NCBI RefSeq assembly: GCF_030462475.1
Contig: NZ_JASMRZ010000049.1
Span: 1 to 32,000 of the forward strand
Reading direction: 5' to 3'
Origin: Variovorax sp. CAN15
Lineage (GTDB): Bacteria; Pseudomonadota; Gammaproteobacteria; Burkholderiales; Burkholderiaceae_C
Length of the DNA stretch: 32,000 nt
In this document: positions 3,001-30,477 of the stretch, in pieces
Layout of the letters: each line of letters starts with the position of its first letter
Position numbering within the stretch: position 1 is the first letter of the stretch
The notes under the pieces: model-generated
Databases searched by the model: none
Told to the model about the DNA's origin: nothing
What the model saw: only the letters and a program-made list of their open reading frames with translations
Program-made: the position numbers and the translations under genes

Positions 3001-3991
3001 CTCGGAAATTCCCGACGACTGGATGCGTGCGCTGGCGCGCTGGCACGGCAAGTGCCGCGGCACGCGCGCGAATCTGCCGGGCGGCGAGGCCCCGTCGCGC
3101 GCCGACGAATACCTGTTTTACCAGACGCTGCTGGGCACCTTGCCGCCGGGCGGGCTCGATGCGGATGCGCTGCCGGAGTACACGCAGCGCATCTGCCAGT
3201 ACATGCGCAAGGCCGCGCGCGAAGCCAAGCTGCGCACACGCTGGACCCAGCCGGACGAAGACTACGAAGCCGCGCTGGAGCACTTCGTGCAGGAAATCCT
3301 GGCTCCGGCTGAAAACGGGGAGGAGGGCGAGTGCCTGCGCGACATCCGGCTGCTGTCGGACCGGCTCGCGACGATCGGTGCATGGAACAGCCTCACGTTG
3401 ACGTTGCTGAAGTACGCCTCGCCGGGCGTGCCGGATCTCTACCAAGGCAGCGAACTGATCGCGCTGAGCCTCGTGGATCCGGACAACCGGCGGCCGGTGG
3501 ACTATGCGCTGCGCCAGCGGCTGCTCGAGGAACTGGACGGGATGGCCGGCGAGGATGGGCTCGCCCGGCGGGTTTGCGCGATGGCCGAGTCTCCGCACGA
3601 TGGACGGGCGAAGCTCTGGTTCATCTGGCGCCTGCTGTCCTTGCGCCGGGTACAGCCGCTGCTGTTTGACGAAGGCAGCTACGAGCCGCTGGAGGTCGAG
3701 GGCCCGCTGGCGGGGCACGTGGTCGCGTTCGCCCGGCGGCATGCCGACCAAACGGTGCTGGTTCTGGCGGCCCGCCTGTTCGCGTCCTTTTCCGGCGATG
3801 CTGCAACGCCGATGCTGCCGGAGCCGACGAAATGGAACGGCACGACGATCCGCCTGCCGGAAGGACTCGGTGGACGCTCGTTCCGCAACCTGCTGACCGG
3901 GGAGGTCGTTTCCCTCAAAGAACGGCTGGAGCTGACCGATGCATTCAACTCGATCCCATGGGCAGCATTGGCTCCTGACGCCACGCTCTGA
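1..3991 (+). CDS. Fused 4-alpha-glucanotransferase (MalQ-like, GH77; 5' end outside window) / maltooligosyl-trehalose synthase (TreY-like, GH13)
   Basis: One uninterrupted ORF, open at the window edge. The first ~355 aa carry amylomaltase-type motifs (RIDHAMGLMRLFWIP, VVGEDLGTV, ISTHDLATFAGWW, NMPGTVDEHPNWRRK). With no stop codon, a TreY-type domain then follows (ATYRLQFHKDFGFDD, LGVSHVYCSPI, MVPNHMG, GLRIDHPDGL, TSTHDNKRSEDVR). An in-frame GTG at 1073 lies near the junction, but no stop separates the two halves. Confidence 0.85.
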   Translation, partial: RVHAGRVRFHQYLQWVADRQFSRVAARCRALGMGVGLYTDLAVSVDRAGSDAWSFQEGFAENASIGAPPDEFNPAGQRWGLPPLRPASLRADGYRFFIETLRASMRGAGALRIDHAMGLMRLFWIPPGCGAGEGAYVYYPLDEMLAIVAIESHRQRCMVVGEDLGTVEDAVRNGLSRADVLSYRLLYFEQRHGGGFKAPAEYPPAALVAISTHDLATFAGWWTAADLRERLALGLFPDPAVFDRQLADRVRERVELMHSMQQEGLLSREEMAEAAGLAAPSERVVEAAHAFLASTPSALMMVQLEDVAGTIEQANMPGTVDEHPNWRRKLAQPVAALVQGDRMHGLARLLREARPRQVQGETPAGLQARIPRATYRLQFHKDFGFDDAIRVLPYLAKLGVSHVYCSPIQRARPGSMHGYDVVAHTEINPELGGVEGFARFVDALKANGLGQLLDMVPNHMGVFGADNAWWMDVLENGPASLFAQHFDIDWQPLNPELAGKVLLPVLGGHYGETLDGGELVLCFEAAAGSFAIRYFEHRFPLAPETYPVVLERALERLGDADASHRLASLSTAFGRLPGRDLASPHEQAERVRDKELCKARLADLVQSQPSVAHALAAATAEFNLASAEARDALHRLIEAQAYRLAHWRVAADEINYRRFFDINDLAGVRMERGEVFEATQSFALDLAASGVVDGLRIDHPDGLYDPAGYFRKLQEGYARRAGLVLPTHDAQGRPARPLYVVAEKIAAAHEDVPDSWHVHGTTGYRFANVANGVLVDTAGRDRVLHAWQRFTGVVEDFASICRDGRREVMRNALSSELNVLSGVLLRIARADRGTRDYTLNALRRALTGVCACMTVYRTYIVDEPSAQDGRFIDEAVAEAARRSGDADLSVFGFLRGALRGEASAGASPALAERVRRFAMRFQQFSAPVAAKGVEDTAFYRYFPLSSLNEVGGEPDLFGIEIGQFHALSADRALRWPHTMLATSTHDNKRSEDVRNRIDVLSEIPDDWMRALARWHGKCRGTRANLPGGEAPSRADEYLFYQTLLGTLPPGGLDADALPEYTQRICQYMRKAAREAKLRTRWTQPDEDYEAALEHFVQEILAPAENGEEGECLRDIRLLSDRLATIGAWNSLTLTLLKYASPGVPDLYQGSELIALSLVDPDNRRPVDYALRQRLLEELDGMAGEDGLARRVCAMAESPHDGRAKLWFIWRLLSLRRVQPLLFDEGSYEPLEVEGPLAGHVVAFARRHADQTVLVLAARLFASFSGDAATPMLPEPTKWNGTTIRLPEGLGGRSFRNLLTGEVVSLKERLELTDAFNSIPWAALAPDATL

Positions 3992-4017
3992 TCAAGAGCA
4001 AATCATCTGTTATCAAT

Positions 4018-4045
4018 ATTTAACATAATGCACATTGTGTCCAAT
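4018..4045. repeat. dif-like 28-bp XerC/XerD-type site (attL): ATTTAACATAA-TGCACA-TTGTGTCCAAT
   Basis: 4018-4028 is the exact reverse complement of the conserved XerD arm of E. coli dif (TTATGTTAAAT). A 6-bp spacer and an 11-bp second arm follow, and that arm matches the E. coli XerC arm at 6/11 positions. The spacer plus second arm recur at 13133-13149 with one mismatch. Confidence 0.6.
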
Positions 4046-4412
4046 GCGCCAGCATTCCGACCAGGTCAGTAGCTCCCGGGACCATCGAAAAAATCTGGTG
4101 TGCCGCTGCTCCAGCGGAACCGATAGCCGCGCCAGTCACTAGCAAAGCTTTTCCCAGCGCTTTCATGAGCGCGTCCCCCTTGGGCTTTCCCTCGTAAGCC
4201 TCGACTGTCGCGCGTGCCAGCACTTGCACCGGGTCGAGTCCGGCTATGTGGGCCATCAGTGCTTGGTCTGCCGGCGTGCATGCCTGGTGAGCGTGCCGCC
4301 AGTTGCTGATGCGTTGGCGGGTTACTCCCAGCGCGATCGCCAGTTTGTTGTCGCTGCCCGCTGCCTTTGCTGCCTTGTCGATTAGCAGGTTTAGTTCTTC
4401 GAGATGTTGCAT
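4020..4412 (-). CDS. Phage repressor-like HTH DNA-binding protein (Cro/CI / YdaS-like), with a hydrophobic C-terminal segment
   Basis: The ATG at 4412 gives MQHLEELNLLIDKAAKAAGSDNKLAIALGVTRQRISNWRH, a helix-turn-helix pattern. The gene is divergent from the phage forward operon. The track start at 4460 is a TTG and looks less likely. The last codons overlap the dif-like site. Confidence 0.7.
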   Translation of the reverse strand: MQHLEELNLLIDKAAKAAGSDNKLAIALGVTRQRISNWRHAHQACTPADQALMAHIAGLDPVQVLARATVEAYEGKPKGDALMKALGKALLVTGAAIGSAGAAAHQIFSMVPGATDLVGMLAHWTQCALC

Positions 4413-4492
4413 GTCTTTACTCACGTACAAGAATTGATGTACATTCCCGGCACGTATCAATATCTGTGAACGTACACGGACTGAGGGACATT
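4413..4492. promoter_or_regulatory. Divergent promoter/operator region of the prophage with repeated ACGTACA-type motifs
   Basis: AT-rich 80-bp gap between the repressor start (4412) and the first forward ORF (4493). It contains ACGTACA at 4423-4429 and 4470-4476, ACGTATCA at 4452-4459, and the palindrome TGTACA at 4438-4443. Confidence 0.45.
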
Positions 4493-4636
4493 ATGGCTCG
4501 GAGGGAACAGCTGTTACCAGCACGGCGACAACAGTCGCTTCCGGCGCGCGCGCGTGCCGGCCAATCCGGTGTCGGCATGGTCGCCATGTTCCTCGGCCGT
4601 CGCCCTCCAGCTCAGCAGCCGGTCAAGCAGCAATGA
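4493..4636 (+). CDS. Small basic hypothetical protein (47 aa), possible first gene of the phage forward operon
   Basis: ATG preceded by GAGGGA at appropriate spacing. The stop overlaps the next ATG (ATGA at 4633-4636). The composition is Arg/Gln-rich, so coding status is uncertain. Confidence 0.3.
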   Translation: MARREQLLPARRQQSLPARARAGQSGVGMVAMFLGRRPPAQQPVKQQ

Positions 4637-4947
4637 GTAAGCAAGCCCAGTACTTCCTGCGCATGTGGTACGGCGTCTTGGCGCGTCTGGAGCACCCCCG
4701 CCACAGTGCTCAATTCGACCGTGAGCTTTTCGAGGATGAGCATCGAGTGCGCATCCTGGCCGCCGACTTGATCGGATGGGGCGTCAGCCGGCCGGACGAG
4801 CCGGCCGCGCGGAGCGGAGCGACTCGCGAGCCGGCGCTGTCGGCCGTGAACCCGCTCCCGAATTTTTGTCAGGCGGGCGTGGTAGCACCGCCTGACAGTC
4901 TCATGCACGAGAAAAGCGCCGTTATCGGGCGCGGGGTGCAGGCATGA
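4633..4947 (+). CDS. Hypothetical phage protein (104 aa)
   Basis: ORF in the forward phage operon, coupled by ATGA overlaps to both neighbours. Its composition is less biased than that of the antisense ORF 4612-4908. No family recognised. Confidence 0.5.
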   Translation: MSKQAQYFLRMWYGVLARLEHPRHSAQFDRELFEDEHRVRILAADLIGWGVSRPDEPAARSGATREPALSAVNPLPNFCQAGVVAPPDSLMHEKSAVIGRGVQA

Positions 4948-5174
4948 CGAACGGTGTCCTGCCTTTTTTCCTCTATACGGGTTCGGGCGCGTCGACTTGC
5001 TACGTTATTTCATGGACCGGCCGTCGCATCGATGGCGACGATGTCGAGCCGCAGGTGTATCGCGTTGTGTGTCATGGCGTGAAAGCTGCCCGTGCTGCGC
5101 AGGATGGGCTTCGCGCTCGTGGGTTCACCGTCACGTGCGAACAGGTGGCGTTCTATCGGGTTGGTGGCGACTGA
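4944..5174 (+). CDS. Hypothetical phage protein (76 aa)
   Basis: Coupled ORF. Its start overlaps the previous stop, and its stop TGA overlaps the ATG of the replication gene (TGATG at 5172-5176). No family recognised. Confidence 0.5.
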   Translation: MTNGVLPFFLYTGSGASTCYVISWTGRRIDGDDVEPQVYRVVCHGVKAARAAQDGLRARGFTVTCEQVAFYRVGGD

Positions 5175-6358
5175 TGGCCTACGACACCATCAAGCTCCGC
5201 TCCCCGTTCATGGACCTGTCCGTCATGCGCCGGATCGAGCAGCAATGCATCCTGCGTTCGGGCATGCATCTCGGTACTGGCGAGATCCTGTACGAACTGC
5301 ACGCCGGCGAGCTGCTCGGGAGCTGGGATGCCCGCATCGGGATCAAGCCGATGCATGAGGAGCACGTGGCTGACAAGAACGGCCGCGTTCGGCTGCAGCC
5401 CTGCGAGCCTTACTTGCTTATCGAGGCCAGCGTGCACAAGGTGCTGCTTGGTCACAACGTCTATGGCGGGCCGACCAACTTCCTGGAGGCCGCGCGCTAT
5501 CTGGTCGCGCTCATCGAGAAGCTGCTGGACACGGATTTGCCAGCTGCAGACAACTGGACGGTGCACCGCGTTGACGTGGCGAACGTCTTCGTGCTCTCCC
5601 CTGCCGGCATCAAACAGTTTTTCGATTCGATGCAGCTCATGAGCTTTCCGCGCCGTGGTGCGAAGGCGATGAAGTGCGCGATGAGCATTTACTTCCCGGG
5701 CAAGACCACGACCGTGAAGTTCTATCACAAGGGCTCCGAGTTCAAGGTGCACGACTACGCCAGGCTGCGCCGCTTTTTCCGCACCCTCTTCGATCACTTG
5801 CACGGCACCGACGAGAAGAACCCCGAGCGCGTCGAACGCAAGCTGCGCGCTCTTCAACGTCTCGCTGATCGACGCCTGCGCGTCGAGGTCGAGATCCACT
5901 CCGACAAATTGCAGTACGACTTCGGACGGAACCCCACCGCCGCCGAGATCGGGGATGAGTACCTGCAGCGCATTCACGACAGCGAAATCGAACGAATCCT
6001 TCGCGAAGGAAAACAAGGCATGGACACCGTACGCACCGAAGAGGCCGTGTGGCAGCGCCTCCAGTCTCGCTACCCGCAAAAGCTCGCCCACGTGCTGCAT
6101 GCCTTCTGGCAAACGATGGCCACGCGCGGCGACGACAAGGCGAAGGAGCGTTACACGAAGCCGACCTTCTACCGCAATCGCAAGCTGCTCGAAGAGGTTG
6201 GCGTGAGCTGGCGCGGCAGCGACATCGTCCTGGTGGCGAACGATTCCTTAATCCATGACTTCACGCCCATGAGGGGCGACAGGCGGTTCTGCAATCAACC
6301 GGCTCGGAACCGCCCCGAGTACCACGTCAGCCGGGATTTGATGCGCCTCGCGGCGTAG
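5174..6358 (+). CDS. Rolling-circle replication initiator, filamentous-phage gene II-like (Phage_CRI / Rep_trans type)
   Basis: The ATG at 5174 gives MAYDTIKLRSPFMD..., about 394 aa. It sits first in the replication module, directly upstream of a ~100-aa candidate ssDNA-binding gene. The WTVHRVDVANVF segment resembles the conserved RxDxA motif of this Rep family. The track start at 4997 overlaps the upstream ORF and is rejected. Confidence 0.65.
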   Translation: MAYDTIKLRSPFMDLSVMRRIEQQCILRSGMHLGTGEILYELHAGELLGSWDARIGIKPMHEEHVADKNGRVRLQPCEPYLLIEASVHKVLLGHNVYGGPTNFLEAARYLVALIEKLLDTDLPAADNWTVHRVDVANVFVLSPAGIKQFFDSMQLMSFPRRGAKAMKCAMSIYFPGKTTTVKFYHKGSEFKVHDYARLRRFFRTLFDHLHGTDEKNPERVERKLRALQRLADRRLRVEVEIHSDKLQYDFGRNPTAAEIGDEYLQRIHDSEIERILREGKQGMDTVRTEEAVWQRLQSRYPQKLAHVLHAFWQTMATRGDDKAKERYTKPTFYRNRKLLEEVGVSWRGSDIVLVANDSLIHDFTPMRGDRRFCNQPARNRPEYHVSRDLMRLAA

Positions 6359-6370
6359 GAGTGAAAGCAC

Positions 6371-6694
6371 ATGAACGCAGTTGTTCAACCCGCCGGCATG
6401 CAATTTTCGCGTGCGAAACCGATGGAGGTCCTGGTCAAGGGCCGTATCGATGCTCGTCGTCGTCACGATGGCACGCACTACACGCGTGTGCTCACGCCGG
6501 CGCCGGATGCGTATAGCCGTCCGCAGGTGGTTGAGATCCGCAGTAAGCAGTCCCTCGGCGCGACGGGTGACGAAATCGAGAAGCTGTGCAAGCTCGGCGG
6601 CTATACGCGCAAGGCCTTCCGTACGACCGACAAGGAAACCGGTGAAACCACGATGGTGACGCCGGTGGATCTGACGCTCGACGAGATCGAGTGA
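6371..6694 (+). CDS. Candidate ssDNA-binding protein (gene V equivalent), 107 aa
   Basis: The size and its position immediately after the Rep gene match the inovirus g5p slot. No motif recognised with certainty. Confidence 0.45.
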   Translation: MNAVVQPAGMQFSRAKPMEVLVKGRIDARRRHDGTHYTRVLTPAPDAYSRPQVVEIRSKQSLGATGDEIEKLCKLGGYTRKAFRTTDKETGETTMVTPVDLTLDEIE

Positions 6695-6867
6695 TGCCCT
6701 CCCCCGCCGCCGCCCTCGCCTTCGCCGTCGCTGGCTTCTTGCTGGCGATGGTTGTTGTCGGGCTCATCTGGGTCGACGGCGAACGCGCTGCCAAGCGTGA
6801 TCGCATTGAGCGCGTGCGCCGTCGCGATCACTCGAAGGTGCCTTCAATCCACTCGGCTTCTCGCTGA
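6694..6867 (+). CDS. Small single-pass membrane protein (57 aa), not in the supplied ORF track
   Basis: Hand translation gives MPSPAAALAFAVAGFLLAMVVVGLIWVDGERAAKRDRIERVRRRDHSKVPSIHSASR. The ATG overlaps the previous stop (TGATG at 6692-6696). It has an N-terminal TM helix and a basic tail. Confidence 0.5.
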   Translation: MPSPAAALAFAVAGFLLAMVVVGLIWVDGERAAKRDRIERVRRRDHSKVPSIHSASR

Positions 6868-6880
6868 TCCGAGGAAAACC

Positions 6881-7174
6881 ATGGCTGCAATTGATGTGTC
6901 TGCTCTCGGTACTGCCTTGCTTGAGAACGCGCAGGCCGTGTCTCTCGTCGGCGTCGCTTGCCTCGGCATTTGGGGTGCGATCAGCGCATTCCGAGTGCTT
7001 CGAGAGCTGCTTGAAATCGGTTCGTCGGCGTCGTCTGGCAGGGGTGGCGGCGGTGGCGGGTCGTCTTCGTTGGATCGGCTTGCTGAGGCTCGTGCGCACG
7101 CGCAGCAGATGCAGTTGACTGGCGAGGGGCAGTCCGCTGCGTATGCAGAGCATGAGGCGCGAGGCGGCAAGTGA
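6881..7174 (+). CDS. Leaderless coat-protein paralogue with Gly/Ser-rich and charged C-terminal extension (97 aa)
   Basis: The ATG at 6881 follows GAGGAAAACC. Residues 2-44 (AAIDVSALGTALLENAQAVSLVGVACLGIWGAISAFRVLRELL) align without gaps to the predicted mature major coat (AAIDVAAVVTDIGAQAAPIGLIGVAVLLIYGAVKAFKWVRAAL), with about half the positions identical. Confidence 0.6.
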   Translation: MAAIDVSALGTALLENAQAVSLVGVACLGIWGAISAFRVLRELLEIGSSASSGRGGGGGGSSSLDRLAEARAHAQQMQLTGEGQSAAYAEHEARGGK

Positions 7175-7272
7175 TCCGCTGGCTTGTCCGCACGTTCGGC
7201 CGTAGTTTTGTCTGGAAGCTCGGCGCGCTCGCTGCCGTCGCGGCGGTGGCTTTCGTCAAGGCGTACTTCTGA
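7171..7272 (+). CDS. Micro-ORF, 33-aa membrane peptide (g7p/g9p-like slot), not in the supplied ORF track
   Basis: The GTG at 7171 overlaps the upstream stop (GTGA). Translation gives MIRWLVRTFGRSFVWKLGALAAVAAVAFVKAYF. Its stop overlaps the next ATG (TGATG at 7270-7274). Confidence 0.45.
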   Translation: MIRWLVRTFGRSFVWKLGALAAVAAVAFVKAYF

Positions 7273-7472
7273 TGGCTGATCCCACTGTCATCGAATGCGC
7301 ATCCGCGTGCACCGTCACCGTGGTGCACGAACTCTCTCTTCCTCCGCTTCAGCTCAGCACTGAAGAGGGGGCACAAATCGCGCTCGCCATCAGCGCGGTC
7401 TGGGTCGTTGGCTGGGCCATCCGCATGGTCCTGAAGACGCTCAGTACTTCCGATGGAAACCAACCTGAGTAA
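7272..7472 (+). CDS. Small membrane protein (66 aa), minor virion/assembly protein slot
   Basis: Coupled ORF with a hydrophobic helix (GAQIALAISAVWVVGWAIRMVL), located just upstream of the major coat gene. Confidence 0.55.
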   Translation: MADPTVIECASACTVTVVHELSLPPLQLSTEEGAQIALAISAVWVVGWAIRMVLKTLSTSDGNQPE

Positions 7473-7485
7473 AGGAAATTTCGAC

Positions 7486-7689
7486 ATGAACGCAAACATC
7501 GTTCGCGGCCTCGTTGCCGCTGGTGCTCTGACCCTCGTGGGCGGTGCGAATGCCGCCGCCATCGACGTGGCGGCTGTGGTCACCGACATCGGCGCACAGG
7601 CCGCTCCGATCGGTCTGATCGGCGTGGCCGTGCTGCTGATCTACGGCGCGGTGAAGGCCTTCAAGTGGGTGCGCGCAGCTCTGAGCTGA
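7486..7689 (+). CDS. Major coat protein (g8p-like) with cleavable leader
   Basis: The ATG at 7486 follows AAAGGAAA. The leader is MNANIVRGLVAAGALTLVGGANA with an A-x-A cleavage motif. The ~44-aa mature peptide has an acidic N-terminus (AAIDVAAVVTD), a hydrophobic core and a basic C-terminus (KAFKWVRAALS). That pattern is the inovirus coat signature. Confidence 0.8.
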   Translation: MNANIVRGLVAAGALTLVGGANAAAIDVAAVVTDIGAQAAPIGLIGVAVLLIYGAVKAFKWVRAALS

Positions 7690-7811
7690 TCCCCCGCTGA
7701 GCGCACCTGGTGGACGCGCCAGGTGCCTTGTTCAAAGCGGTCGCGTTGACTGCTTCGCACAGGGCAACGACACATGGGCCTCTTCGTCATCATCGCAATC
7801 CTGGGGGCCTT

Positions 7812-9284
7812 GTGGCTCATCTTCTCCGCCTGATCCTGGCCGCCGTGCTGGCGGTTTTCTCGGTGTCGGTGCATGCGCTGATTCCGGTATCGGACTCCTG
7901 GTCTTTCAACGCCGCGCAGTACGGTGATTCCGGCAAGCAAGGGTCTGGCTTCGCGTCTGCGCAAGCTGCTTGCGATGCGTACGTCAACGCGCAAAAGGCT
8001 TCCATACCGTCGTGGACCTTTGGTTCTGGTGCTGTCGGTGCGGCCGCATCGCCCGCGAGTATTTGGGGTGACTTCAAGTGCACCGTCTATGCCAATAACG
8101 GGTCTATCGGTCCGATGCAGGCTGGTCTTTACAAGAGTGCTGGTGGTAGCTGTCCCGCTAACAGCACGCTTGTTTCTTCGTTGAATCAGTGCTCATGCAA
8201 CGCGAACTATGAAGAGGATTCGACGCACACGAGTTGCGTGCCCTCTAAGTCGCGGTGGGAGAAGGCGTGTGAGGGCAACATTGGCAAGCGCTACAACTTT
8301 CAGTCCGCTGGTAAGAACCAGGCTGGCGGCTGCCAGACCGAAATTAACAACGTCAATTCGCCCATCGAGGGCGATACGGGTGGCTTGCCCGATTCGTTCG
8401 GTTGCCAGGTGCGTTTCGTTGATGACGGCAGTAAGACGTCGGCGCTTGATCCAGACACCAAGGAGTGGGTCACGAAGGGCCTCGGCCGTGTTACCGGCGA
8501 GACCTGTGTTGGTACTGGCGTGCCAGTGCCTAGCGACGCTCCCGAGGGCACCACGCAGGAATCCGAGGGCAAGAACGATCAGTGCCCCTATGGGCTGGTG
8601 AAGGGTGTCAACGGGCAGATCGTGTGCGCGTACAGCGATCCCAATGGCACCATCGAAGGCACGGAGACCAGCACCGTCAAGAACCCCGACGGCACGTCGA
8701 CTGACACCAAGAAAGAGATCAAGTGCGATGGTGGTGTGTGCACGACGACGACAACAACGACGACACGCGATAGCGCGGGCACCATCGTCGGCACGAAGAT
8801 CGATGAGAAGAAAGAGTCCATCGGGGAGACGTGCAACAAGGACCCGGGCAATAAGGTGTGTGCCACCACGGGCGGTGGAGGTTCTGATGGTGGTGCTGGG
8901 TTCAGTGGTACGTGCGAGGCTGGCTTTCAGGCCAAGGGTGAGGATCCTGTGTTGAACGCGATGGCGCTTGAACAGTACAAGCGCAATTGCGAGACCTTCC
9001 GTACCGACATGGAGCCGTCGACGTGGGTTGTTGCCGAAGGCCAGAAGACCGGCAACGCCATGGAGGGCAATCCCAACAATGGGTCCGTAAGTGTCGGCCC
9101 CGGCAACTTCGACCAGTCCGATGCACTCGGCGGTGGCGGTTGCAATCTCAACAAGACGGTCGTGGTGCGCGGCTACAGCGTCGCCCTGCCCTTCAACGTC
9201 CTGTGTGACCCGCTCGCTGTGTTGGGTCAGATCCTGGTGGCCGTCTCGCTCCTGTTGGCGGCTCGTATCGTCACAAGGGGGTAA
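7812..9284 (+). CDS. Adsorption / minor coat protein (g3p-like), secreted, Cys-rich, C-terminally anchored
   Basis: The in-frame GTG at 7812 gives a signal peptide (AHLLRLILAAVLAVFSVSVHA). The track start at 7710 is an alternative. The protein has many Cys residues, a poly-Thr tract (CTTTTTTTRD), Gly-rich linkers (TTGGGGSDGGAGFSG, GGGG) and a terminal TM anchor (LGQILVAVSLLLAARIVTRG). It sits between the coat gene and the g6p-like gene. Confidence 0.65.
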   Translation: MAHLLRLILAAVLAVFSVSVHALIPVSDSWSFNAAQYGDSGKQGSGFASAQAACDAYVNAQKASIPSWTFGSGAVGAAASPASIWGDFKCTVYANNGSIGPMQAGLYKSAGGSCPANSTLVSSLNQCSCNANYEEDSTHTSCVPSKSRWEKACEGNIGKRYNFQSAGKNQAGGCQTEINNVNSPIEGDTGGLPDSFGCQVRFVDDGSKTSALDPDTKEWVTKGLGRVTGETCVGTGVPVPSDAPEGTTQESEGKNDQCPYGLVKGVNGQIVCAYSDPNGTIEGTETSTVKNPDGTSTDTKKEIKCDGGVCTTTTTTTTRDSAGTIVGTKIDEKKESIGETCNKDPGNKVCATTGGGGSDGGAGFSGTCEAGFQAKGEDPVLNAMALEQYKRNCETFRTDMEPSTWVVAEGQKTGNAMEGNPNNGSVSVGPGNFDQSDALGGGGCNLNKTVVVRGYSVALPFNVLCDPLAVLGQILVAVSLLLAARIVTRG

Positions 9285-9286
9285 CC

Positions 9287-9586
9287 ATGCCACTCATCCT
9301 CGCGCTGTTGTTGCGCGGTCTTCTCTGGGTCTCCGGCAGTGTCGCCGGCCAGGTGCTGCTGCGACTCGGCATCGGTGTCGTCACGTACACCGGCACCAAT
9401 GCCAGTCTCGCCTGGTTGAAGTCGCAGGCCGTCTCTGCGCTTCAGGGCATGGGCGGTGATTACATCGCCCTCCTCTCCTACATGAAGGTCGGTGTCTGCA
9501 TCAGCATCATCACCAGCGCCATCGTGGCGCGTGCTGTCGTCACGGGCATTACCAGTGACAGCGTCAAGCGCTGGGTGTTGAAGTGA
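9287..9586 (+). CDS. Minor coat protein g6p-like (DUF2523-type)
   Basis: 99-aa multi-hydrophobic-segment protein (GQVLLRLGIGVVTYTGTNASLAWLKSQ...). This is the pattern and position of DUF2523 proteins that precede Zot in Pf/Xanthomonas-type inoviruses. Confidence 0.65.
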   Translation: MPLILALLLRGLLWVSGSVAGQVLLRLGIGVVTYTGTNASLAWLKSQAVSALQGMGGDYIALLSYMKVGVCISIITSAIVARAVVTGITSDSVKRWVLK

Positions 9587-9750
9587 CTGATCTCGCTTTG
9601 TCGTTGGTGTGTTTGGCGCTGGCGTTCGTCAGTTGGGCTGGTGCGAATCGTGCGATCGATGCTGATGACGACAGTACGGTCATTCGATATCTGGTTGTTA
9701 TGGCTGGCCTTGGCGGTATCGGGTTGGCCAACACTGTTGGGCGGTTCTGA
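9583..9750 (+). CDS. Small membrane protein (55 aa), not in the supplied ORF track
   Basis: The GTG at 9583 overlaps the g6p-like stop (GTGA). Translation gives MTDLALSLVCLALAFVSWAGANRAIDADDDSTVIRYLVVMAGLGGIGLANTVGRF. Its stop overlaps the Zot ATG (TGATG at 9748-9752). Confidence 0.4.
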   Translation: MTDLALSLVCLALAFVSWAGANRAIDADDDSTVIRYLVVMAGLGGIGLANTVGRF

Positions 9751-10958
9751 TGCTGTATCTCCGCACTGGGGCCAATGGCTCCTGCAAGTCCCTCTTCACG
9801 CTCAAGGATGTGCGCGAGAAGCAGCTCGCCGAGCTGCGGCCGGTCTGCGTCATCGTCGGTGACGATACCGATCCGACCAGGCAGTACGTGAAGATCAAGC
9901 CAGCGATCATGGAGGAGTTCGGCTGGAAGACCTGCCAGTTCAAGGACTGGTGGGCGCAGGCCGATGGCACGATCTTCCTGGCCGATGAATGCCATAACTA
10001 CCTGCCCAAGCGTCCGAATGGATCTGCAGTTCCGCAGTACGTCAGCCGCCTGGCCGAGCATCGAGCTCGTGGCATGGACTTCTTCCTGCTTACCCAGCAT
10101 CCGAGCAACATCGACAGCTTCGTGACGAAGCTGGTCGGGTCGCCTGGCTGGCACCAGCATCTCAAGCGGGCGTTCGGTGCGTCCAACGTGACCAGCGTGA
10201 TCCAGTGGTCGGCGGTCAACAACCAGTGCGAGAAAGATGGCTCGGGCAAGTCTGGCCAGGTCGACATGCGCAGTCAGCCGAAGGATGTGTTCGTCTGGTA
10301 CGACAGCGCCGAGCTGCACACCGGTAAGCGCAAGATCCCGCGCCAGTTCTGGATGGTCGCCGTCGGTGTGCCGCTGGCGCTCGGCATGTTCTTCATGGCC
10401 GCGAAGCTGCTCTGGGATCGCACCCACAAGTCCACCGTGGTGCAGGCTGGCCAGCCTGGCCAGGCCGGACCTGGAGCGCCTGGTGCGGCAGCTGCTGCAC
10501 GCGATCACGTGATGACGCCAACCGAGTACATCGCCAGCTACAAGCCACGTGTGCCTGGCTTGATGCATTCGGCGCCGGCGTACGACAAGCTGACGGAGCC
10601 GAAGCGTGTGCCGGTGCCGGCCGCGTGTGTCTCGATGCCGTCGAAGGGTTGCAAGTGCTACACGCAAGATGCGACGCCCTATCCGGTCGACCAGGCCATG
10701 TGCGATGGCCTGGTCAAGCATGGCGCGTTCTACGCTTTTGCGGCTGAAGGTGAGCGCAAGGCCTACGATCAGCCGCGTATCGCCCGCCAAGGCCCGGAAA
10801 CGGCCCTTCCTGGGGCTGTCGCTCCGATCCTGATCGACGGGGGCCCTAAGTCGCCCGGTGCCGCTACGACGGTCGCAACCGCGGTGCCGCCAGATCTGGG
10901 CAGTCAGCCGCGTGTCCGGCCTGGCTCGCCATGGTCGTTCGAGCTCCCTGCACGTTGA
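9750..10958 (+). CDS. Zonula occludens toxin-like assembly ATPase (g1p / Zot family)
   Basis: N-terminal P-loop (LRTGANGSCKS) and a Walker-B-like IFLADECH. It also has the EHRARGMDFFLLTQHPSNID block typical of Zot/g1p. A central TM segment (FWMVAVGVPLALGMFFMAAKLLW) is followed by a periplasmic tail. Confidence 0.8.
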   Translation: MLYLRTGANGSCKSLFTLKDVREKQLAELRPVCVIVGDDTDPTRQYVKIKPAIMEEFGWKTCQFKDWWAQADGTIFLADECHNYLPKRPNGSAVPQYVSRLAEHRARGMDFFLLTQHPSNIDSFVTKLVGSPGWHQHLKRAFGASNVTSVIQWSAVNNQCEKDGSGKSGQVDMRSQPKDVFVWYDSAELHTGKRKIPRQFWMVAVGVPLALGMFFMAAKLLWDRTHKSTVVQAGQPGQAGPGAPGAAAAARDHVMTPTEYIASYKPRVPGLMHSAPAYDKLTEPKRVPVPAACVSMPSKGCKCYTQDATPYPVDQAMCDGLVKHGAFYAFAAEGERKAYDQPRIARQGPETALPGAVAPILIDGGPKSPGAATTVATAVPPDLGSQPRVRPGSPWSFELPAR

Positions 10959-10964
10959 AGTGAA

Positions 10965-11010
10965 AAAGCCGCCCTCGGGCGGCTCCGCCCTCGGGCGGCT
11001 TCGTTTTTTC
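10965..11010. terminator. Tandem GC hairpins with flanking A/T runs, acting as a bidirectional intrinsic terminator between Zot (+) and the ParB-like gene (-)
   Basis: The sequence is AAAAAGCCGCCCTCGGGCGGCTCCGCCCTCGGGCGGCTTCGTTTTTT. It contains two copies of a CCGCCC-TCG-GGCGG stem-loop, with an A-run upstream and a T-run downstream. Confidence 0.7.
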
Positions 11011-11021
11011 GCACGCGAAAC

Positions 11022-12080
11022 TCACACTATGGTCGCGCGGATCTCGATGGCGAGATCTCGGAGCGTCAGGTCGATGTTGTTGGCACCGAGGATGTAGGCG
11101 GCGGTGTCTTCGGTGCTCGGGTAGTTGTCTATCCATCGCGCGATTCGGCGCATGGCGTCGAGCTTAGTTGCCGTCACGAGCTGGTGGCCTGACTGCCATG
11201 CCTCTACTACGTATTCGCACATGACCTGTTGTTGTTCAGCGGTCAGCTTTCCGATGACTGCGTCGAGATCGACGTTCTCGCTGGGCTTGAGTTCGTCGAT
11301 CAGATCGTCAAAGCCATGACTTGCCGTCCAGCTCGGTGTCTTTTGCTCTGTGACTGGTGCGTTCTTGGCTTTCGCTTTCTTTTTCGCGGAGGCCTTTTTC
11401 TCGGCTGCGATCTTCTCCTTGATTTCGGCCAGTAGCGCGCGTGCTTCCGTGCGGCCGGCCTTGCCGGTTTCGATGGCGTCGAGCAGCTGCTGTTGCGGTC
11501 TGCCCCACGCGAGCGTTTCGATCTGCGAGATCGTTAGCACCAGGTCGAGGTCTTCCGTCTTGCCGCTGTCCAGCAGCATGCGCGCGCGCCAGCTCAGCTT
11601 CGTGGCCGCTGCTAGGTGCTTCGACACCCATGGCAGCGATTTGCCCGTCAGCGCCGCGATGGGTTTCAGCGCCTGGTGCTTGTCGTAGAGCTTCTTTACG
11701 TTGGCCGCGAGATCCTGCACGCTCAGGTCTTCGCGCTGGATGTTTTCCACGAGCTGCATTTCGGCCGCCTTGGCCGCGTCGATCTCGCCGATGAGGGCGG
11801 GCACGGCGGTAAGGCCTGCCAGGTGTGCTGCGCGTACGCGTCGCTCGCCGGCGATGATGATGAAGCTGCCCATCTTGTCCGGATCTGGGCGCAACAGGAC
11901 GGGCTGCATCATGCCCTGCTGCTTCATGCTCTCGGCCAGCTCCTGCAGCGTTGCTTCGTCGAAGAACGTGCGGACCTGGTCCTCCGCGCGGATGTTCTCG
12001 AGCGAGATGAATTGCAGCGCAGGCGCTGCCGGTGTGGTGGTCGCCGGTGTTGCCGGCGTCTTGCGGGTCTTCGTGGCCAT
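11022..12080 (-). CDS. ParB/Spo0J-like N-terminal domain protein (352 aa) with a Lys-rich linker and an unassigned C-terminal domain
   Basis: ParB-box motifs QPVLLRPDPDKMGSFIIIAGERRVRAAHLAGLTAVPALI. A KKASAKKKAKAK linker follows. The ~130-aa C-terminal region was not recognised. Confidence 0.75.
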   Translation of the reverse strand: MATKTRKTPATPATTTPAAPALQFISLENIRAEDQVRTFFDEATLQELAESMKQQGMMQPVLLRPDPDKMGSFIIIAGERRVRAAHLAGLTAVPALIGEIDAAKAAEMQLVENIQREDLSVQDLAANVKKLYDKHQALKPIAALTGKSLPWVSKHLAAATKLSWRARMLLDSGKTEDLDLVLTISQIETLAWGRPQQQLLDAIETGKAGRTEARALLAEIKEKIAAEKKASAKKKAKAKNAPVTEQKTPSWTASHGFDDLIDELKPSENVDLDAVIGKLTAEQQQVMCEYVVEAWQSGHQLVTATKLDAMRRIARWIDNYPSTEDTAAYILGANNIDLTLRDLAIEIRATIV

Positions 12081-12083
12081 GGC

Positions 12084-12386
12084 TCAGTACTCCTGGCGGA
12101 AGGTGAAGCCGTCGGCCAGGATCGACTTGTCGTAGGATTTCCACGCGATGTGAGAGCCGCGCGGCAGGTTGTCTGGTGCGTCGAGGTTTCCTGCCATCTG
12201 CCAATCCATGAAGAAGTCGCCCGTAACGTCGCCTGCGCATTCATGAGCGTATGGATGGCGGCATGGTGTGAATGCGCCTCCGAAGGTCGGTGGCGTCACC
12301 AGCTCGAGCTGGGCCTGGCTGGGGGTGGTCGCCGGCGCGAGTTGCGCTGCGGCGAAGGATGCGAACGAGATCTGAGTAGCGGACAT
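12084..12386 (-). CDS. Hypothetical protein (100 aa), first gene of the reverse-strand ParB-like operon
   Basis: The ATG at 12386 is preceded by AGGAG (CAGGAGTCCACATG on the minus strand). It ends 3 nt before the ParB-like ATG, and the ParB-like SD (AGGAG) lies within its last codons. No family recognised. Confidence 0.55.
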   Translation of the reverse strand: MSATQISFASFAAAQLAPATTPSQAQLELVTPPTFGGAFTPCRHPYAHECAGDVTGDFFMDWQMAGNLDAPDNLPRGSHIAWKSYDKSILADGFTFRQEY

Positions 12387-12444
12387 GTGGACTCCTGGAA
12401 GTTGGGCTGTTGAAGGGAATACCTTCAGCAGTCGCTTCCTCGCT

Positions 12445-12463
12445 CCCCTCGCAGGGCGAGGGG
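12445..12463. other. Short perfect hairpin CCCCTCGC-AGG-GCGAGGGG
   Basis: 8-bp stem with a 3-nt loop in the phage non-coding region. The same CCCCTCGC arm recurs at the apex of the large hairpin at 12494-12604. Confidence 0.5.
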
Positions 12464-12493
12464 CGGGGGGGAGTGGGTTGCTCGTGCAACAAG

Positions 12494-12604
12494 AAAAATC
12501 CGGCCAGTGCCGGAATCCCGCATAAAAAACACCCCCGTTGCGCCCCTCGCAAAAGCGTGGGGTCAACGGGGGTGTTTGCGGGATTCCAAGCTGGTCGGAT
12601 TTTT
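12494..12604. other. ~111-nt imperfect hairpin in the main phage intergenic region (candidate packaging signal and/or origin structure)
   Basis: Three paired blocks: 12494-12507 with 12591-12604 (one G-T pair), 12512-12522 with 12577-12587, and 12528-12540 with 12564-12576. An apical extension CCCCTCGC-AAAA-GCGTGGGG has one mismatch. In total ~45 bp are paired, with small bulges. Confidence 0.6.
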
Positions 12605-12756
12605 CAGTGGGTAGCTATCGCCAAAAGCACCAGGCGTGACATAGCGCAGCGGGAAGGTAGCGAAGCGGACGGCTGGCGCGACTGGTGACTTGGCGATGCG
12701 GCCTCGAGGTCACGCAGCTGGTGCACACAGATCCGCCGCGGGGCGGCGCCCTCCCC

Positions 12757-13017
12757 TCAATCTGCCCGCATGTCGGGAGTTGAGATCGTCAGCTTGAGGC
12801 CGTCTCGCAGCTCCGGCGTATTCCTGGTCGAGCGCATTTCTCTGTTCGCGTCCATGAAGCCATCGCGCACAGCTATACGAATGACCCAGTAGAGAAGCCA
12901 CAGTGTGATTGCTGTCGAGATCGCTCCAATGATGAAGAGCACGACGAGCTCCTGTCCTGCCTGGTGCTGTGCCTGGCGCACCATCTGGTCAAGGTGTCTT
13001 TGTAGTTGTGGGTCCAT
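12757..13017 (-). CDS. Small membrane protein (86 aa), hypothetical
   Basis: Unbiased composition with one clear TM helix (LVVLFIIGAISTAITLWLLYWVI). It lies inside the predicted prophage, next to attR. No family recognised. Confidence 0.45.
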   Translation of the reverse strand: MDPQLQRHLDQMVRQAQHQAGQELVVLFIIGAISTAITLWLLYWVIRIAVRDGFMDANREMRSTRNTPELRDGLKLTISTPDMRAD

Positions 13018-13018
13018 G

Positions 13019-13048
13019 AAAAAGGCCTCCGATCGGAGGCCGTATTTT
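13019..13048. terminator. Hairpin GGCCTCC-GATC-GGAGGCC flanked by an A-run and a T-run (bidirectional terminator-like)
   Basis: 7-bp GC stem at 13024-13041, with AAAAA at 13019-13023 and TATTTT at 13044-13048. On the minus strand the stem contains the GGAGG that would serve as the SD for ORF 12757-13017. Confidence 0.5.
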
Positions 13049-13121
13049 GCTGGTAGTCTTAACGAGATTTACATTTTTTCAAGCGAATTTCGCTTGACAT
13101 AAGCCCGATTGTGTTCTGCTA

Positions 13122-13149
13122 AATCGAGCTTTTGCACATTGTATCCAAT
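13122..13149. repeat. Second dif-like copy (attR): AATCGAGCTTT-TGCACA-TTGTATCCAAT
   Basis: The spacer and right arm match the 4029-4045 copy except for one G/A difference. The left arm does not resemble a XerD arm (4/11 to ATTTAACATAA). This is what a phage-derived half-site would look like. Confidence 0.55.
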
Positions 13150-13197
13150 GCCACACCAGTTCGGACGACGCTCAAACCTTCTGAGCCTAGACGAAGC

Positions 13198-13878
13198 TCA
13201 CCACTTGCCGTCCTTGGGAACAGCCTTGACCGCGCTGGCCTTTGCATTCGCTGCCGCGGCGATCATCGAGGCGGCTTCCGAGCGGTTCGCCTTGTTGGCG
13301 AAGTCGACGGCGGTCATGCCCAGCTGGTTCTTCATGGTCGTGTCGGCGCCCTCTTCCAGCAGCAGCTTCACGGCGTCGTTGGAGCCGTACATGGCGGCCA
13401 TCATCAACGGCGTGGTGCCGTTGGGCGATTGCGCATCGATGAAGGCGAAGTTCTCGAGCAGCGTCTTCATGATCGCGATCTGGCCGCTGGTGGCTGCGTA
13501 GTGCAGCGGCGTCCAGCCGGTCTTGTTGACGGCTGCGTCGCGCTTGAGAAGCTGGGCGACGATGTCCTGCTGACCCTTGATCGCGGCCAGCATCAGCGGG
13601 GTTTCGTCCTTGGGACTGGCGATGTCCACATCGGTCTGCGGCGCCTCGATCAGCACCTTGATGACTTTCGGCGATGGCTCGCGCAGCGCGATCAGCAGGC
13701 CCGTCTGGCCGTGTTCGTCGCGGGTGTTGGGGTCGAACCCGCGCTGGATCAGGTTGCTGACGCCGCTGGCGTTGTCGCCGCGAACGGCACGGAAGAAGTC
13801 TTCGAATGAGCCGGCGTGCGCTGCAAAAGATGCAGCAATGACAATGAGATAAATCGATTTCTTGAAGTAGTTTTTCAT
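13198..13878 (-). CDS. Secreted ankyrin-repeat protein
   Basis: Signal peptide MKNYFKKSIYLIVIAASFAAHA. Several ANK repeats follow (TPLMLAAIKGQQDIVAQLL, GWTPLHYAATSGQIAIMKTLL, GTTPLMMAAMYGSNDAVKLLLEEGAD). Confidence 0.85.
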   Translation of the reverse strand: MKNYFKKSIYLIVIAASFAAHAGSFEDFFRAVRGDNASGVSNLIQRGFDPNTRDEHGQTGLLIALREPSPKVIKVLIEAPQTDVDIASPKDETPLMLAAIKGQQDIVAQLLKRDAAVNKTGWTPLHYAATSGQIAIMKTLLENFAFIDAQSPNGTTPLMMAAMYGSNDAVKLLLEEGADTTMKNQLGMTAVDFANKANRSEAASMIAAAANAKASAVKAVPKDGKW

Positions 13879-14681
13879 GATTTGACTTCCCTGAACAATG
13901 CTTCGAAATTGTCGCTCGTGGCCTTGGCGACGGCCTCTACGGGCATCTGCCTGAGCTCCGCGATCTGCTGCGCCACGTAGGGCACGTAAGACGGGTTGTT
14001 GGTCTTGCCGCGGTACGGCACCGGCGCGAGATACGGGCTGTCGGTTTCGATCAGCATCCGGTCCAGCGGCACGAAGGCGGCCACGTCGCGCAGGTCCTGC
14101 GCCTTCTTGAAGGTCAGGATGCCGGAGAACGAGATGTAGAAACCGAGGTCGAGCGCGGCGCGGGCCACCTCGGCGGTCTCGGTGAAGCAGTGGAACACGC
14201 CGCCGGCCGCGCCAGGCGAGGCATCCTCGCCCTCTTCCTTCAGGATCGCCAGCGTGTCCGCCGAAGCCTCGCGGGTGTGGATGATCAGCGGCTTGCGGGT
14301 CTGCCGGGCGGCTCGGATGTGCACGCGGAAGCGGTCACGCTGCCACTCCATGTCGGAGATGCTGCGGCCGCCCTTGCGCTCTTCCATCTGGTAGTAGTCG
14401 AGGCCGGTTTCGCCGATGGCCACCACACGCGGCCTCTGAGAAAGGCGCACCAGGTCGTCGACCGAAGGCTCGGCGATGTCCTCGTTGTCGGGGTGCACGC
14501 CCACGCTCGCCCAGAAGTTGTCGTAGCTGGCGGCAAGGGCCTGCACTTCGTCGAATTCCTCGAGCTTGGTGCAGATGCAGAGTGCCCGGTCGACCTGAGC
14601 CGCGGCCATGGCGGCGCGGATCTGCGGCATCTGGCCCGCGAATTCGGGAAACGTGAGGTGGCAGTGGGAGTCTGTGAACAT
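13875..14681 (-). CDS. TatD-family metal-dependent hydrolase (YcfH-like)
   Basis: The ATG at 14681 gives MFTDSHCHLTF, the HxH metal motif. Other motifs are AIGETGLDYY, PLIIHTREA, GVFHCF and ETDSPYLAP. Its stop overlaps the ankyrin gene start. Confidence 0.9.
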   Translation of the reverse strand: MFTDSHCHLTFPEFAGQMPQIRAAMAAAQVDRALCICTKLEEFDEVQALAASYDNFWASVGVHPDNEDIAEPSVDDLVRLSQRPRVVAIGETGLDYYQMEERKGGRSISDMEWQRDRFRVHIRAARQTRKPLIIHTREASADTLAILKEEGEDASPGAAGGVFHCFTETAEVARAALDLGFYISFSGILTFKKAQDLRDVAAFVPLDRMLIETDSPYLAPVPYRGKTNNPSYVPYVAQQIAELRQMPVEAVAKATSDNFEALFREVKS

Positions 14682-14778
14682 CGGAAATGATGGAGTGCGC
14701 GGCGCATGCCCTTCTGGGGCCTCCATGGGAGGTTGCGCCGTCGACCGAGTTCCGCGTCACGAGGACGGGGCGGAAAAC

Positions 14779-15165
14779 TCAGATGGTTTGCGTGGGGCGG
14801 TCGGAGGCCATCGAGCCGCCGAGCGCCGCTTCGATGCGCGCCTTCAGCTGGCGCGACTTCTCGTCGGAAGGAAAACGGATGCCCACGCCCGGAGCCCGGT
14901 TGCCGGCGGCGCGCGGCGGCGTGATCCAGGCGACCTTGCCGGCCACGGGGTAGCGCTGCGGATCTTCCGGTAGCGTCAGCAGCACGTAGACGTCGTCGCC
15001 CAGGCGGTATTCGCGCGTGGTCGGGATGAAGATGCCGCCCTCCGCGAACAGCGGGATGTAGGCCGCGTACAGCGCGCCCTTTTCCTTGATGGCGAGCTGG
15101 ATGACGCTCGGCCGGGCGGGTGCGGAAGATGCTGCGGGCGCAGCGGATGCGGCAGGTTGGTTCAT
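14779..15165 (-). CDS. pilZ: PilZ-domain protein (type IV pilus assembly PilZ type)
   Basis: 128 aa with LYAAYIPLFAEGGIFIPT...LGDDVYVLLTLPED...GKVAWITP...GVGIRF. The conserved holB-pilZ-tatD context supports the call. Confidence 0.8.
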   Translation of the reverse strand: MNQPAASAAPAASSAPARPSVIQLAIKEKGALYAAYIPLFAEGGIFIPTTREYRLGDDVYVLLTLPEDPQRYPVAGKVAWITPPRAAGNRAPGVGIRFPSDEKSRQLKARIEAALGGSMASDRPTQTI

Positions 15166-25602: not shown

Positions 25603-25622
25603 GCACCACGACGACATCGCCC

Positions 25623-26012: not shown

Positions 26013-26034
26013 TCGCGCGCATCTCTCCGTTTCC

Positions 26035-30448: not shown

Positions 30449-30477
30449 CCGCCTTCCAACAAGGAGGAGCCGACACC

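Follow-up and report, generated by a model that had tools for sequence, protein, structure and literature searches.

A complete-looking inovirus prophage, probably integrated at the chromosomal dif site, in Variovorax sp. CAN15

Results

An inovirus prophage bounded by dif-like repeats

We analyzed a 32,000-nucleotide stretch of Variovorax sp. CAN15 (contig NZ_JASMRZ010000049.1, positions 1–32,000; hereafter the window), in which a first-pass annotation made from the sequence alone had placed an inovirus prophage at 4018–13149. Profile searches bore this out. The Variovorax chromosome carries there a prophage that looks complete by gene content and junctions, with the gene set of an Inoviridae-type phage (Tubulavirales): a gpII/Phage_CRI Rep, a Zot/gpI ATPase, a leader-bearing coat protein and g6p- and g3p-type minor coats, in canonical order (Table 1). 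Hidden Markov model (HMM) support for the core genes is strong, and Zot, Rep and coat models all matched, so the proposal does not fail for want of such matches. Positions 4018 and 13149 coincide exactly with the outer limits of two directly repeated dif-like sites. The repeats are spaced by 9,104 bp, a unit length within the normal size range of a filamentous phage genome. The GC content across 4000–13500 is 0.55–0.65 compared with 0.67–0.72 in the flanks, in line with the earlier remark that parts of the region are richer in AT than the flanking genes.

The plus strand from 4633 to 10958 is a densely packed run of open reading frames (ORFs), joined by the overlapping junctions that the first-pass annotation had described; start/stop overlaps of 1–4 nt were located at 4944/4947, 5172–5176, 6691/6694, 7171/7174, 7270–7274, 9583/9586 and 9748–9752. 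Searches of Pfam, PHROGs and NCBIfam gave no match to integrase, transposase or secretin families for any ORF, confirming that the element lacks an integrase, a transposase and a pIV secretin. Scans for tRNAs and Rfam families returned nothing in or near the element, and PADLOC found no defense-system match for ParB or the small ORFs. Two parts of the earlier description needed amendment. The genes it had listed are present, but three minus-strand genes, encoding ParB, a 100-aa protein (ORF100) and an 86-aa membrane protein (ORF86), had been omitted. The insertion site was correctly placed on the side of the ankyrin/tatD operon, whereas the left-hand gene is a MalQ–TreY fusion and not treY alone. 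In this neighbor (window 5–3991; 1,578 aa on the source contig), a GH77 4-alpha-glucanotransferase (MalQ-like) is fused to an alpha-amylase-family trehalose synthase domain; we refer to it as treY below.

Table 1. Features of the prophage and its borders in window coordinates. A dot marks features without a strand.
Feature	Position	Strand	Sequence or evidence
attL, regenerated full dif	4018..4045	+	ATTTAACATAA (XerD arm)-TGCACA-TTGTGTCCAAT (XerC arm)
Repressor-like helix-turn-helix (HTH) gene	4020..4460	-	Pfam YdaS_toxin/HTH 3.7e-7; phrog_638 transcriptional regulator 4e-13
Divergent intergenic region, repressor/replication operon	4461..4632	.	placed between divergent genes
ORF104, conserved, upstream of rep	4633..4947	+	C-terminal PHROG match only
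Candidate plus-strand origin hairpin	4863..4903	+	GTCAGGCGG-(11 nt loop)-CCGCCTGAC, T-rich leader
ORF76	4944..5174	+	ORF layout; called as gene on source contig; no family match
Rep, rolling-circle initiator (gpII-like)	5174..6358	+	Phage_CRI PF05144 1.8e-14; phrog_702 4e-45 full-length; TIGR01629
Single-stranded DNA (ssDNA)-binding protein, SSB (gpV-like)	6371..6694	+	phrog_8473 1.8e-38
ORF58, small hydrophobic	6691..6867	+	GTGA overlap; no family match
Coat_B-like paralogue, leaderless	6881..7174	+	Phage_Coat_B 1.3e-6; 83% identical in L009
ORF33, micro-ORF in gpVII/IX-type slot	7171..7272	+	ORF layout; 32-aa homologues called in L124–L131
ORF66, small minor-coat type	7272..7472	+	phrog_4644 2.3e-7; 52–95% identical in many related loci
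Major coat protein with signal peptide (..GGANA/AAIDV..)	7453..7689	+	Phage_Coat_B 4.8e-15, whole model
g3p-like adsorption protein	7710..9284	+	phrog_4352 1.3e-22; weak TspB C-terminal domain match; precedes g6p
g6p-like minor coat	9287..9586	+	DUF2523 1.1e-17; phrog_1242 3.9e-20
ORF55, small hydrophobic	9583..9750	+	ORF layout, overlapped at both ends
Zot/gpI assembly ATPase	9750..10958	+	Zot PF05707 3.6e-13; phrog_197 7.8e-51
Bidirectional terminator-like hairpin	10966..11001	.	between convergent zot and parB
Orphan ParB/Spo0J-family protein, cargo	11022..12080	-	ParB_N 3.9e-23; TIGR00180 2.6e-33; PDB ParB/Noc/KorB matches
ORF100	12084..12386	-	upstream of parB, same strand; called on source contig; no family match
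Non-coding segment	12415..12702	.	strong hairpin 12527–12577; 88% identical to L009, there directly 3' of zot
ORF86, small membrane protein, terminal gene beside attP	12757..13017	-	hydrophobic helix visible in sequence
Perfect palindrome	13078..13098	.	TCAAGCGAA-T-TTCGCTTGA; overlaps site A
Site A, second full-length dif-like site	13092..13119	+	GCTTGACATAA-GCCCGA-TTGTGTTCTGC
attR	13122..13149	+	AATCGAGCTTT (4/11 XerD-arm matches)-TGCACA-TTGTATCCAAT
35-nt flank of non-host origin	13150..13184	.	with attR, minus strand reads ..ELVWHWIQCA

The junctions and the rebuilt attachment site

The two junctions have the central region and the XerC-side arm in common; the XerD arm is found in attL only. 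At attL this arm matches at 11/11 positions and is the sole exact XerD-arm match in the window. It is also the exact reverse complement of the XerD arm of E. coli, TTATGTTAAAT. The chance expectation of the 19-mer core shared by the two dif-like sites is 0.00.

Joining the phage-side halves of attR and attL rebuilds an attP of the form AATCGAGCTTT-TGCACA-TTGTGTCCAAT. Compared with the dif of an unoccupied site (see below), its spacer agrees at 6/6 positions and its XerC arm at the inner seven positions, and its XerD-side arm agrees at 4/11. The phage-side half of attR is identical in three other loci, the IMG/VR pair L014/L015 and the metagenomic locus L033. The rebuilt attP extends into the reverse-oriented repressor gene at its 3' end, and the final codons and stop of this gene lie inside the att site, so that the encoded C-terminus depends on the state of the element: it reads ..HWTQCALC (stop) in the integrated form and is predicted to read ..HWTQCAKARFSRTQSGLCQAKFA (stop), 15 residues longer, in the circular form.

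Host homology restarts ~13 nt ahead of the ankyrin stop codon. In the stretch between attR and that gene, the minus-strand reading given in Table 1 resembles the C-terminus of the prophage repressor, ..DLVGMLAHWTQCA, and this stretch together with attR is probably a fossil repressor 3' end left by an earlier, related integrative mobile element that exploits Xer (IMEX). A different arrangement was seen in the phage type of L015 and L033, where GCACATTGTGTCCAATGC, the crossover core of the window phage, is an internal part of the repressor 3' end (L033:16747–16764 and L015:23–45) and the actual junction is a second copy of TGCACATTGTGT, 22 nt from GCACATTGTGTCCAATGC. A duplication or a shift of the attP core seems to have taken place in the L015/L033 lineage.

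An empty site in close relatives

An exact look-up of the neighboring ankyrin protein matched the source contig alone and offered no comparison between strains. A metagenome scan with the same protein recovered 80 loci from close relatives (61–99% identity). In ~45 of them, a 23-nt core, ATTTAACATAA-TGCACA-TTGTGT, lies downstream of the ankyrin gene at a distance of 32 bp to 9.5 kb; each of these loci has one conserved dif site beside the ankyrin gene, always oriented as in the window. Two loci, L032 and L034, are empty and come from near-identical hosts (ankyrin 98–99% and treY 91–94% identical to the window). Their order is the treY stop, the same 26-nt spacer, ATTTAACATAA-TGCACA-TTGTGTCAATT, 255 bp and the ankyrin stop, and their treY-side flank is identical to the window until the crossover and divergent beyond it. 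The comparison with related genomes by which the first-pass annotation was to be judged therefore came out in its favor, and the converse finding, the same 9 kb with cellular homologues in relatives, was not made: at this locus, the relatives carry no cellular homologues.

The 255 bp of the empty loci (L032:708–1028 and L034:5028–5348) are a remnant of an agmatine-deiminase gene (..GGGIHCTTQQQPR (stop)), and L036, L038 and L039 hold two intact agmatine deiminases and a LysR gene downstream of ankyrin. Judged from these alleles, the dif-proximal region is prone to deletion. We also considered whether every long ankyrin–dif interval represents an IMEX array, and rejected the idea, as L036, L038 and L039 contain host genes with a GC content of 0.66–0.67.

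Together with the conserved core and the empty alleles, further features of the locus provide good evidence that the integration site corresponds to the chromosomal dif. Genes converge on it, with treY on the plus strand and ankyrin, tatD, pilZ, holB, tmk and mltG on the minus strand. Support from the GC skew is weak: it changes sign in the window and has the expected sign, weakly, in 11–12 of 16 related loci. Counts of GGGNAGGG, a motif resembling the FtsK orienting polar sequences, were too few to inform. A scan of a genome collection for the predicted dif returned three distant Burkholderiales metagenome-assembled genomes (MAGs) and one chance match in Kangiella. The MAGs (L002–L004) were rejected as empty sites: the dif arms ATTTAACATAA-N6-TTGTGTCCAAT stand beside a holB–ankyrin cluster, but with respect to the ankyrin homologue they are inverted when compared with Variovorax. 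In L003, a 145-aa minus-strand ORF follows the dif site at the place of the window prophage repressor.

The same dif is occupied by at least four other, different inoviruses (L033, L039, L083 and L014/L015). The L033 prophage measures 6.1 kb and encodes a Zot 26% and a repressor 70% identical to those of the window phage; the L039 prophage is inserted beyond three host genes; and the L083 prophage has a Zot 57% identical. The phage of the L014/L015 pair (Zot 51%, g3p 76% identical) uses the same att site, and the L014 contig continues into an ankyrin gene that shares 98% identity with its counterpart in the window.

Probable integration by host Xer recombination and competing explanations

We conclude that the element is very probably an IMEX, that is, an inovirus integrated at the chromosomal dif by the host recombinases XerC and XerD. 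It encodes no integrase or transposase of its own, its bounds are dif-like, one junction is a full dif and the target is, on good evidence, the chromosomal dif. The dif-like junctions likewise support the earlier suggestion that the phage relies on a host recombinase.

A plausible course of events, in which catalysis by XerCD and the order of strand exchanges are presumed, is as follows. The double-stranded replicative form would bear the rebuilt attP, which XerC and XerD would recombine with the chromosomal dif, where the treY-side and ankyrin-side genes converge. After recombination, the treY side would be left with a full dif (attL) and the ankyrin side with a site that has no XerD arm (attR), so that the host would retain chromosome-dimer resolution and FtsK-driven excision would be disfavored. 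An excised circle would carry the junction CTAAATCGAGCTTT-TGCACA-TTGTGTCCAATGCGCC, and the chromosome left behind would read treY-ATTTAACATAATGCACATTGTATCCAAT-ankyrin. Starting from either the prophage or the replicative form, Rep would nick at the conserved hairpin upstream of its gene and start rolling-circle replication, and the gpV-like protein would coat the ssDNA. Virions would be assembled by Zot, the coat proteins, g3p and g6p and extruded through a host secretin, the use of which we infer from the absence of a pIV gene alone.

The layout of attP, with its degenerate XerD arm and a spacer homologous to dif (6/6), is TLC-like. Integration of the VGJ type was rejected: no XerD arm is present at the crossover site, the spacer there is the same as in dif, and the full-length site A is not the crossover site.

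Several observations weigh against integration by XerCD at dif. No other locus and no empty-site allele matches the 35 nt that separate attR from the ankyrin gene; for this reason the allele as it stood before integration was not recovered exactly, and one has to assume at least one earlier event. The GC-skew maximum falls at ~18 kb in the window, away from dif, and two distant Burkholderiales MAGs have dif beside an ankyrin homologue in the opposite orientation. Scans of IMG/VR found no circular or junction-spanning contig for this phage, and those with the predicted circular junction returned nothing, or only L014/L015. Finally, no XafT-like factor was detected (no DUF3653 match for any ORF in Pfam at E ≤ 0.1), which leaves the activation of a site without a XerD arm unexplained.

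Some of these points would also fit a cryptic, immobilized prophage, one that entered by Xer integration at dif in the past and can now no longer excise, replicate or make virions. In addition to the lack of an episomal or circular contig in IMG/VR, the exact arrangement occurs on one contig only, attR has no XerD arm and no activation factor was recognized, and the fossil flank testifies to prophage decay at this locus. We nevertheless regard such immobilization as unlikely, since no core ORF is interrupted and all have normal length, the two att sites and the origin-like hairpin are intact, and the tight start/stop overlaps have been kept.

CTX-style entry, a well-documented inovirus mechanism (PMC4246890) in which two dif-like sites on the plus-strand ssDNA fold into a forked hairpin, the substrate for irreversible recombination with dif by XerC, comes to mind from the two dif-like sites at the right end (13092–13119 and 13122–13149); it is highly improbable here, as these sites are direct and not inverted repeats and cannot pair, the element contains no inverted copy of the core, and the minimum-free-energy fold of the rebuilt junction ssDNA leaves the crossover core outside a duplex att site. 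Equally little speaks for repeats that are not Xer sites at all but products of an unrecognized phage recombinase (for example ORF104 or ORF76) or of homologous recombination with a resident prophage: ORF104, ORF76, ORF100 and ORF86 have no assignable function, and the repressor-like right flank of attR means that a resident relative once offered homology, but the central region and XerC arm of a genus-conserved site with a perfect XerD arm are exactly where the crossover falls, relatives that encode a recombinase (Resolvase) integrate elsewhere, and the small ORFs are too short and have no recombinase motifs.

Site A and the origin-like hairpin

At 30 nt inside attR lies site A, the second dif-like site. 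Seven distinct right ends, among them that of L123, whose Zot is only 28% identical, have kept its arms and its 29–30 nt spacing to the crossover core. The layout is shared by at least six different inoviruses, the Zot proteins of which are just 26–57% identical. Its spacer is not that of dif and differs from phage to phage. The palindrome overlapping it is conserved in form: in L014/L015 its two halves, TCAACCGAA..TTCGGTTGA, have changed symmetrically and in a compensatory manner. In L022, a relative, the equivalent place is taken by a single full-length dif-like attP.

Our preferred guess, given this pattern of conservation, is that site A serves as a Xer site acting between identical copies, for multimer resolution of the replicative form or excision from tandem arrays. 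It may alternatively be a relic, or a promoter element in which TTGACA forms the -35 box of an outward promoter; a promoter scan and inspection found no acceptable -10 box 16–18 nt from this TTGACA. A bolder idea, which we think doubtful, is that the composite attachment region constitutes a fourth IMEX design, with site A being cer-like or loading XerD in cis without XafT, and the orphan ParB giving the episome plasmid-like maintenance.

At the other end of the element, the 3' end of ORF104 contains a 41-nt origin-like sequence, TTTTTGTCAGGCGG-GCGTGGTAGCA-CCGCCTGACAGTCTCA, which is situated ~270 nt upstream of rep. Ten loci in which Rep is only 58–86% identical have this sequence at 100% identity, and L022–L024 show a compensatory G:C to C:G change in the hairpin, the ssDNA fold of which has z = -3.8. 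This hairpin is therefore a likely plus-strand origin and Rep nick site.

Gene content and the ParB cargo

Some gene starts call for comment. The repressor gene probably starts at the ATG at 4412. The ORF of the Coat_B paralogue opens at 6752, and its likely start is MAAIDVS (~6881). The start of the g3p-like protein is uncertain (490 aa in the source annotation). The intergenic region between the repressor and the replication operon has one promoter-like match, on the minus strand (4517–4490), and is presumably regulatory. ORF104 has full-length counterparts of 36–44% identity in eight Rep-related IMG/VR loci. At the right end, ORF86 homologues of 30–62% identity occupy the same terminal position in L012, L013, L021, L083, L074 and L098.

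ParB, ORF100 and ORF86 are accessory cargo genes. The ParB protein has an N-terminal CTPase fold, a GERRVR motif (GERRxR) and an HTH region, and its nearest structures in the PDB are chromosomal ParB/Spo0J, Noc and KorB. It does not form part of a ParABS system, as a ParA gene is missing from the element and no parS could be identified. Comparison with L009 shows the segment 10960–12414 (parB and ORF100) to be inserted between the zot terminator and a non-coding block (12415–12702) common to the window phage and L009, a relative without ParB; the gene is also absent from L014/L015. Homologues 46–90% identical, convergent to zot, occur on many inovirus-sized contigs and in a 5.5-Mb genome, and L112 holds a 101-aa gene at the position of ORF100. 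We found no discussion of ParB in inoviruses in the literature searched. ParB may plausibly act in maintaining or silencing the episomal form. One further contig (L114; Ga0247823_10001981, 141–16450) carries two tandem, apparently identical copies of an inovirus with ParB and resolvase within 17 kb, representing either a tandem prophage or an assembled concatemer.

Relatives and mosaic ancestry

Exact copies of the PilZ, HolB, Zot, Rep and ParB proteins are annotated in NCBI for Variovorax sp. CAN2819/CAN15. At the DNA level, megablast against GenBank phages gave no match beyond one 50-nt stretch. At the protein level, the modules point to different relatives. Rep and SSB are 59–60% identical to those of 'phage WC36-1', whereas Zot and g6p are 36% and 30% identical to those of Ralstonia p12J/PE226. 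Among uncultivated phages in IMG/VR, L009 has a Zot 89%, a g6p 91% and a coat protein 94% identical, and L018 has a Rep 86% identical; no single uncultivated virus genome (UViG) among the IMG/VR relatives shares all modules. Phages with a Zot at least 90% identical have another Rep family (PF23343) and a serine recombinase and are located between recN/NAD kinase and hrcA, and ParB and a resolvase accompany a Rep of at least 90% identity in another phage. At the protein level, the genome is thus mosaic. The lysogeny module is exchangeable, since Zot or Rep modules of at least 90% identity occur with a serine recombinase or resolvase. A parallel is known from Ralstonia, in which the phiRSS line uses Xer and the phiRSM line a serine recombinase (PMC4471427).

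In L012 (IMGVR_UViG_3300003773_000021; g3p 63%, Zot 49% identical), the phage is bounded by the repeat CCGGTTCCGCCAA, one copy of which lies in a tRNA-like 3' end; this would therefore be a third integration strategy within the same clade. The two WC36-1 records (PP701473.1 and OL791267.1) are flagged UNVERIFIED and assigned to a deep-sea Lentisphaerae strain. Their GC content is 62–65%, and their 41-nt origin hairpin is identical to that of the Variovorax phage; the WC36-1 replicon looks betaproteobacterial, so its host attribution deserves a check.

The first-pass annotation had held that the phage may be undescribed. It is indeed absent from the literature searched, but its proteins are already annotated in NCBI and IMG/VR relatives reach 86–89% identity per module. 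It would be an undescribed species and, relative to classified phages, probably a new genus.

Discussion

A dif-integrating lifestyle is already well known from Vibrio, Xanthomonas, Yersinia and Ralstonia, and the closest described parallel to the Variovorax prophage is Ralstonia phiRSS0. In that phage, a dif-type attP inside the reverse-oriented repressor gene ORF13 is used with host XerC/D (PMC4471427); the Variovorax phage likewise has its attP in the 3' end of a reverse-oriented repressor gene. Like the phiRSS0/phiRSS1 group, PE226 and p12J, it is a betaproteobacterial inovirus without an integrase or secretin, and it shares the gene order of p12J. It differs from the Ralstonia phages in having no DNA similarity to them, in a Rep/SSB pair of another lineage for which no Ralstonia phage gives a match, in carrying ParB, ORF100 and ORF86, and in a crossover site that has no XerD arm and follows a second dif-like site.

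Among the Vibrio elements, TLCphi of Vibrio cholerae is similar in its double-stranded attP with a degenerate XerD arm and a dif-compatible spacer, and in a prophage flanked by dif and an attP-like site (PMC4246890, PMC9226527). In contrast to the complete Variovorax phage, which has no DUF3653/XafT match, TLCphi is a satellite without morphogenesis genes and encodes XafT. Arm-only attP sites of 17 bp have been documented in Vibrio IMEXs (PMC12715192). VGJphi, Xanthomonas Cf1c and XacF1 resemble the Variovorax element as complete inoviruses of ~7–9 kb with double-stranded DNA integration at dif by host XerCD (predicted here), and in VGJ-type integration dif is also regenerated at one junction; the VGJ-type attP, however, consists of one full-length site that has both arms and whose spacer is mismatched on the XerD side (PMC4246890). 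The uncultivated inoviruses of IMG/VR (for example UViG_3300025258_000012, UViG_3300012857_000010 and UViG_3300005511_000731) are alike in their high per-module identity, and the L014/L015 phage uses the same att site beside the same ankyrin gene, whereas the closest morphogenesis module is found in phages with another Rep family and a serine recombinase at another locus.

The likeness to CTX, Pf and Xanthomonas phages proposed in the earlier reading holds for CTX and for Xanthomonas Cf/XacF1, and extends to VGJ/TLC and especially to phiRSS0. It does not hold for Pf: Pf-type phages as a rule have their own integrase.

Variovorax, an ecologically important rhizosphere genus, thus carries intact dif-integrating filamentous phages, documented by an empty site and exact junctions, and several unrelated inoviruses compete for the same dif. 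Phages of this type had not been described from the genus, and the sole survey of Variovorax prophages in the literature searched covers tailed phages only (PMC9658991). It reports genes for Zot, a minor coat and attachment 'interrupting' a tailed prophage of V. boronicumulans J1, and this interruption is probably an unrecognized inovirus of the kind found at the Variovorax dif. An attP without a XerD arm and without a recognizable XafT, outside Vibrio, is a test case for the activation of Xer recombination by mobile elements, and the conserved origin hairpin and recurrent ParB gene offer practical markers for the clade. Current concepts are unchanged; only the composite attachment region and the recurrent ParB might go further than the known lifestyle.

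Elsewhere in the window, positions 23266–30864 hold a type VI secretion auxiliary cluster encoding VgrG (Phage_GPD/Gp5), a DUF2169–pentapeptide fusion, a second pentapeptide-repeat protein, a DUF3540 protein and a PAAR-like toxin-domain protein.

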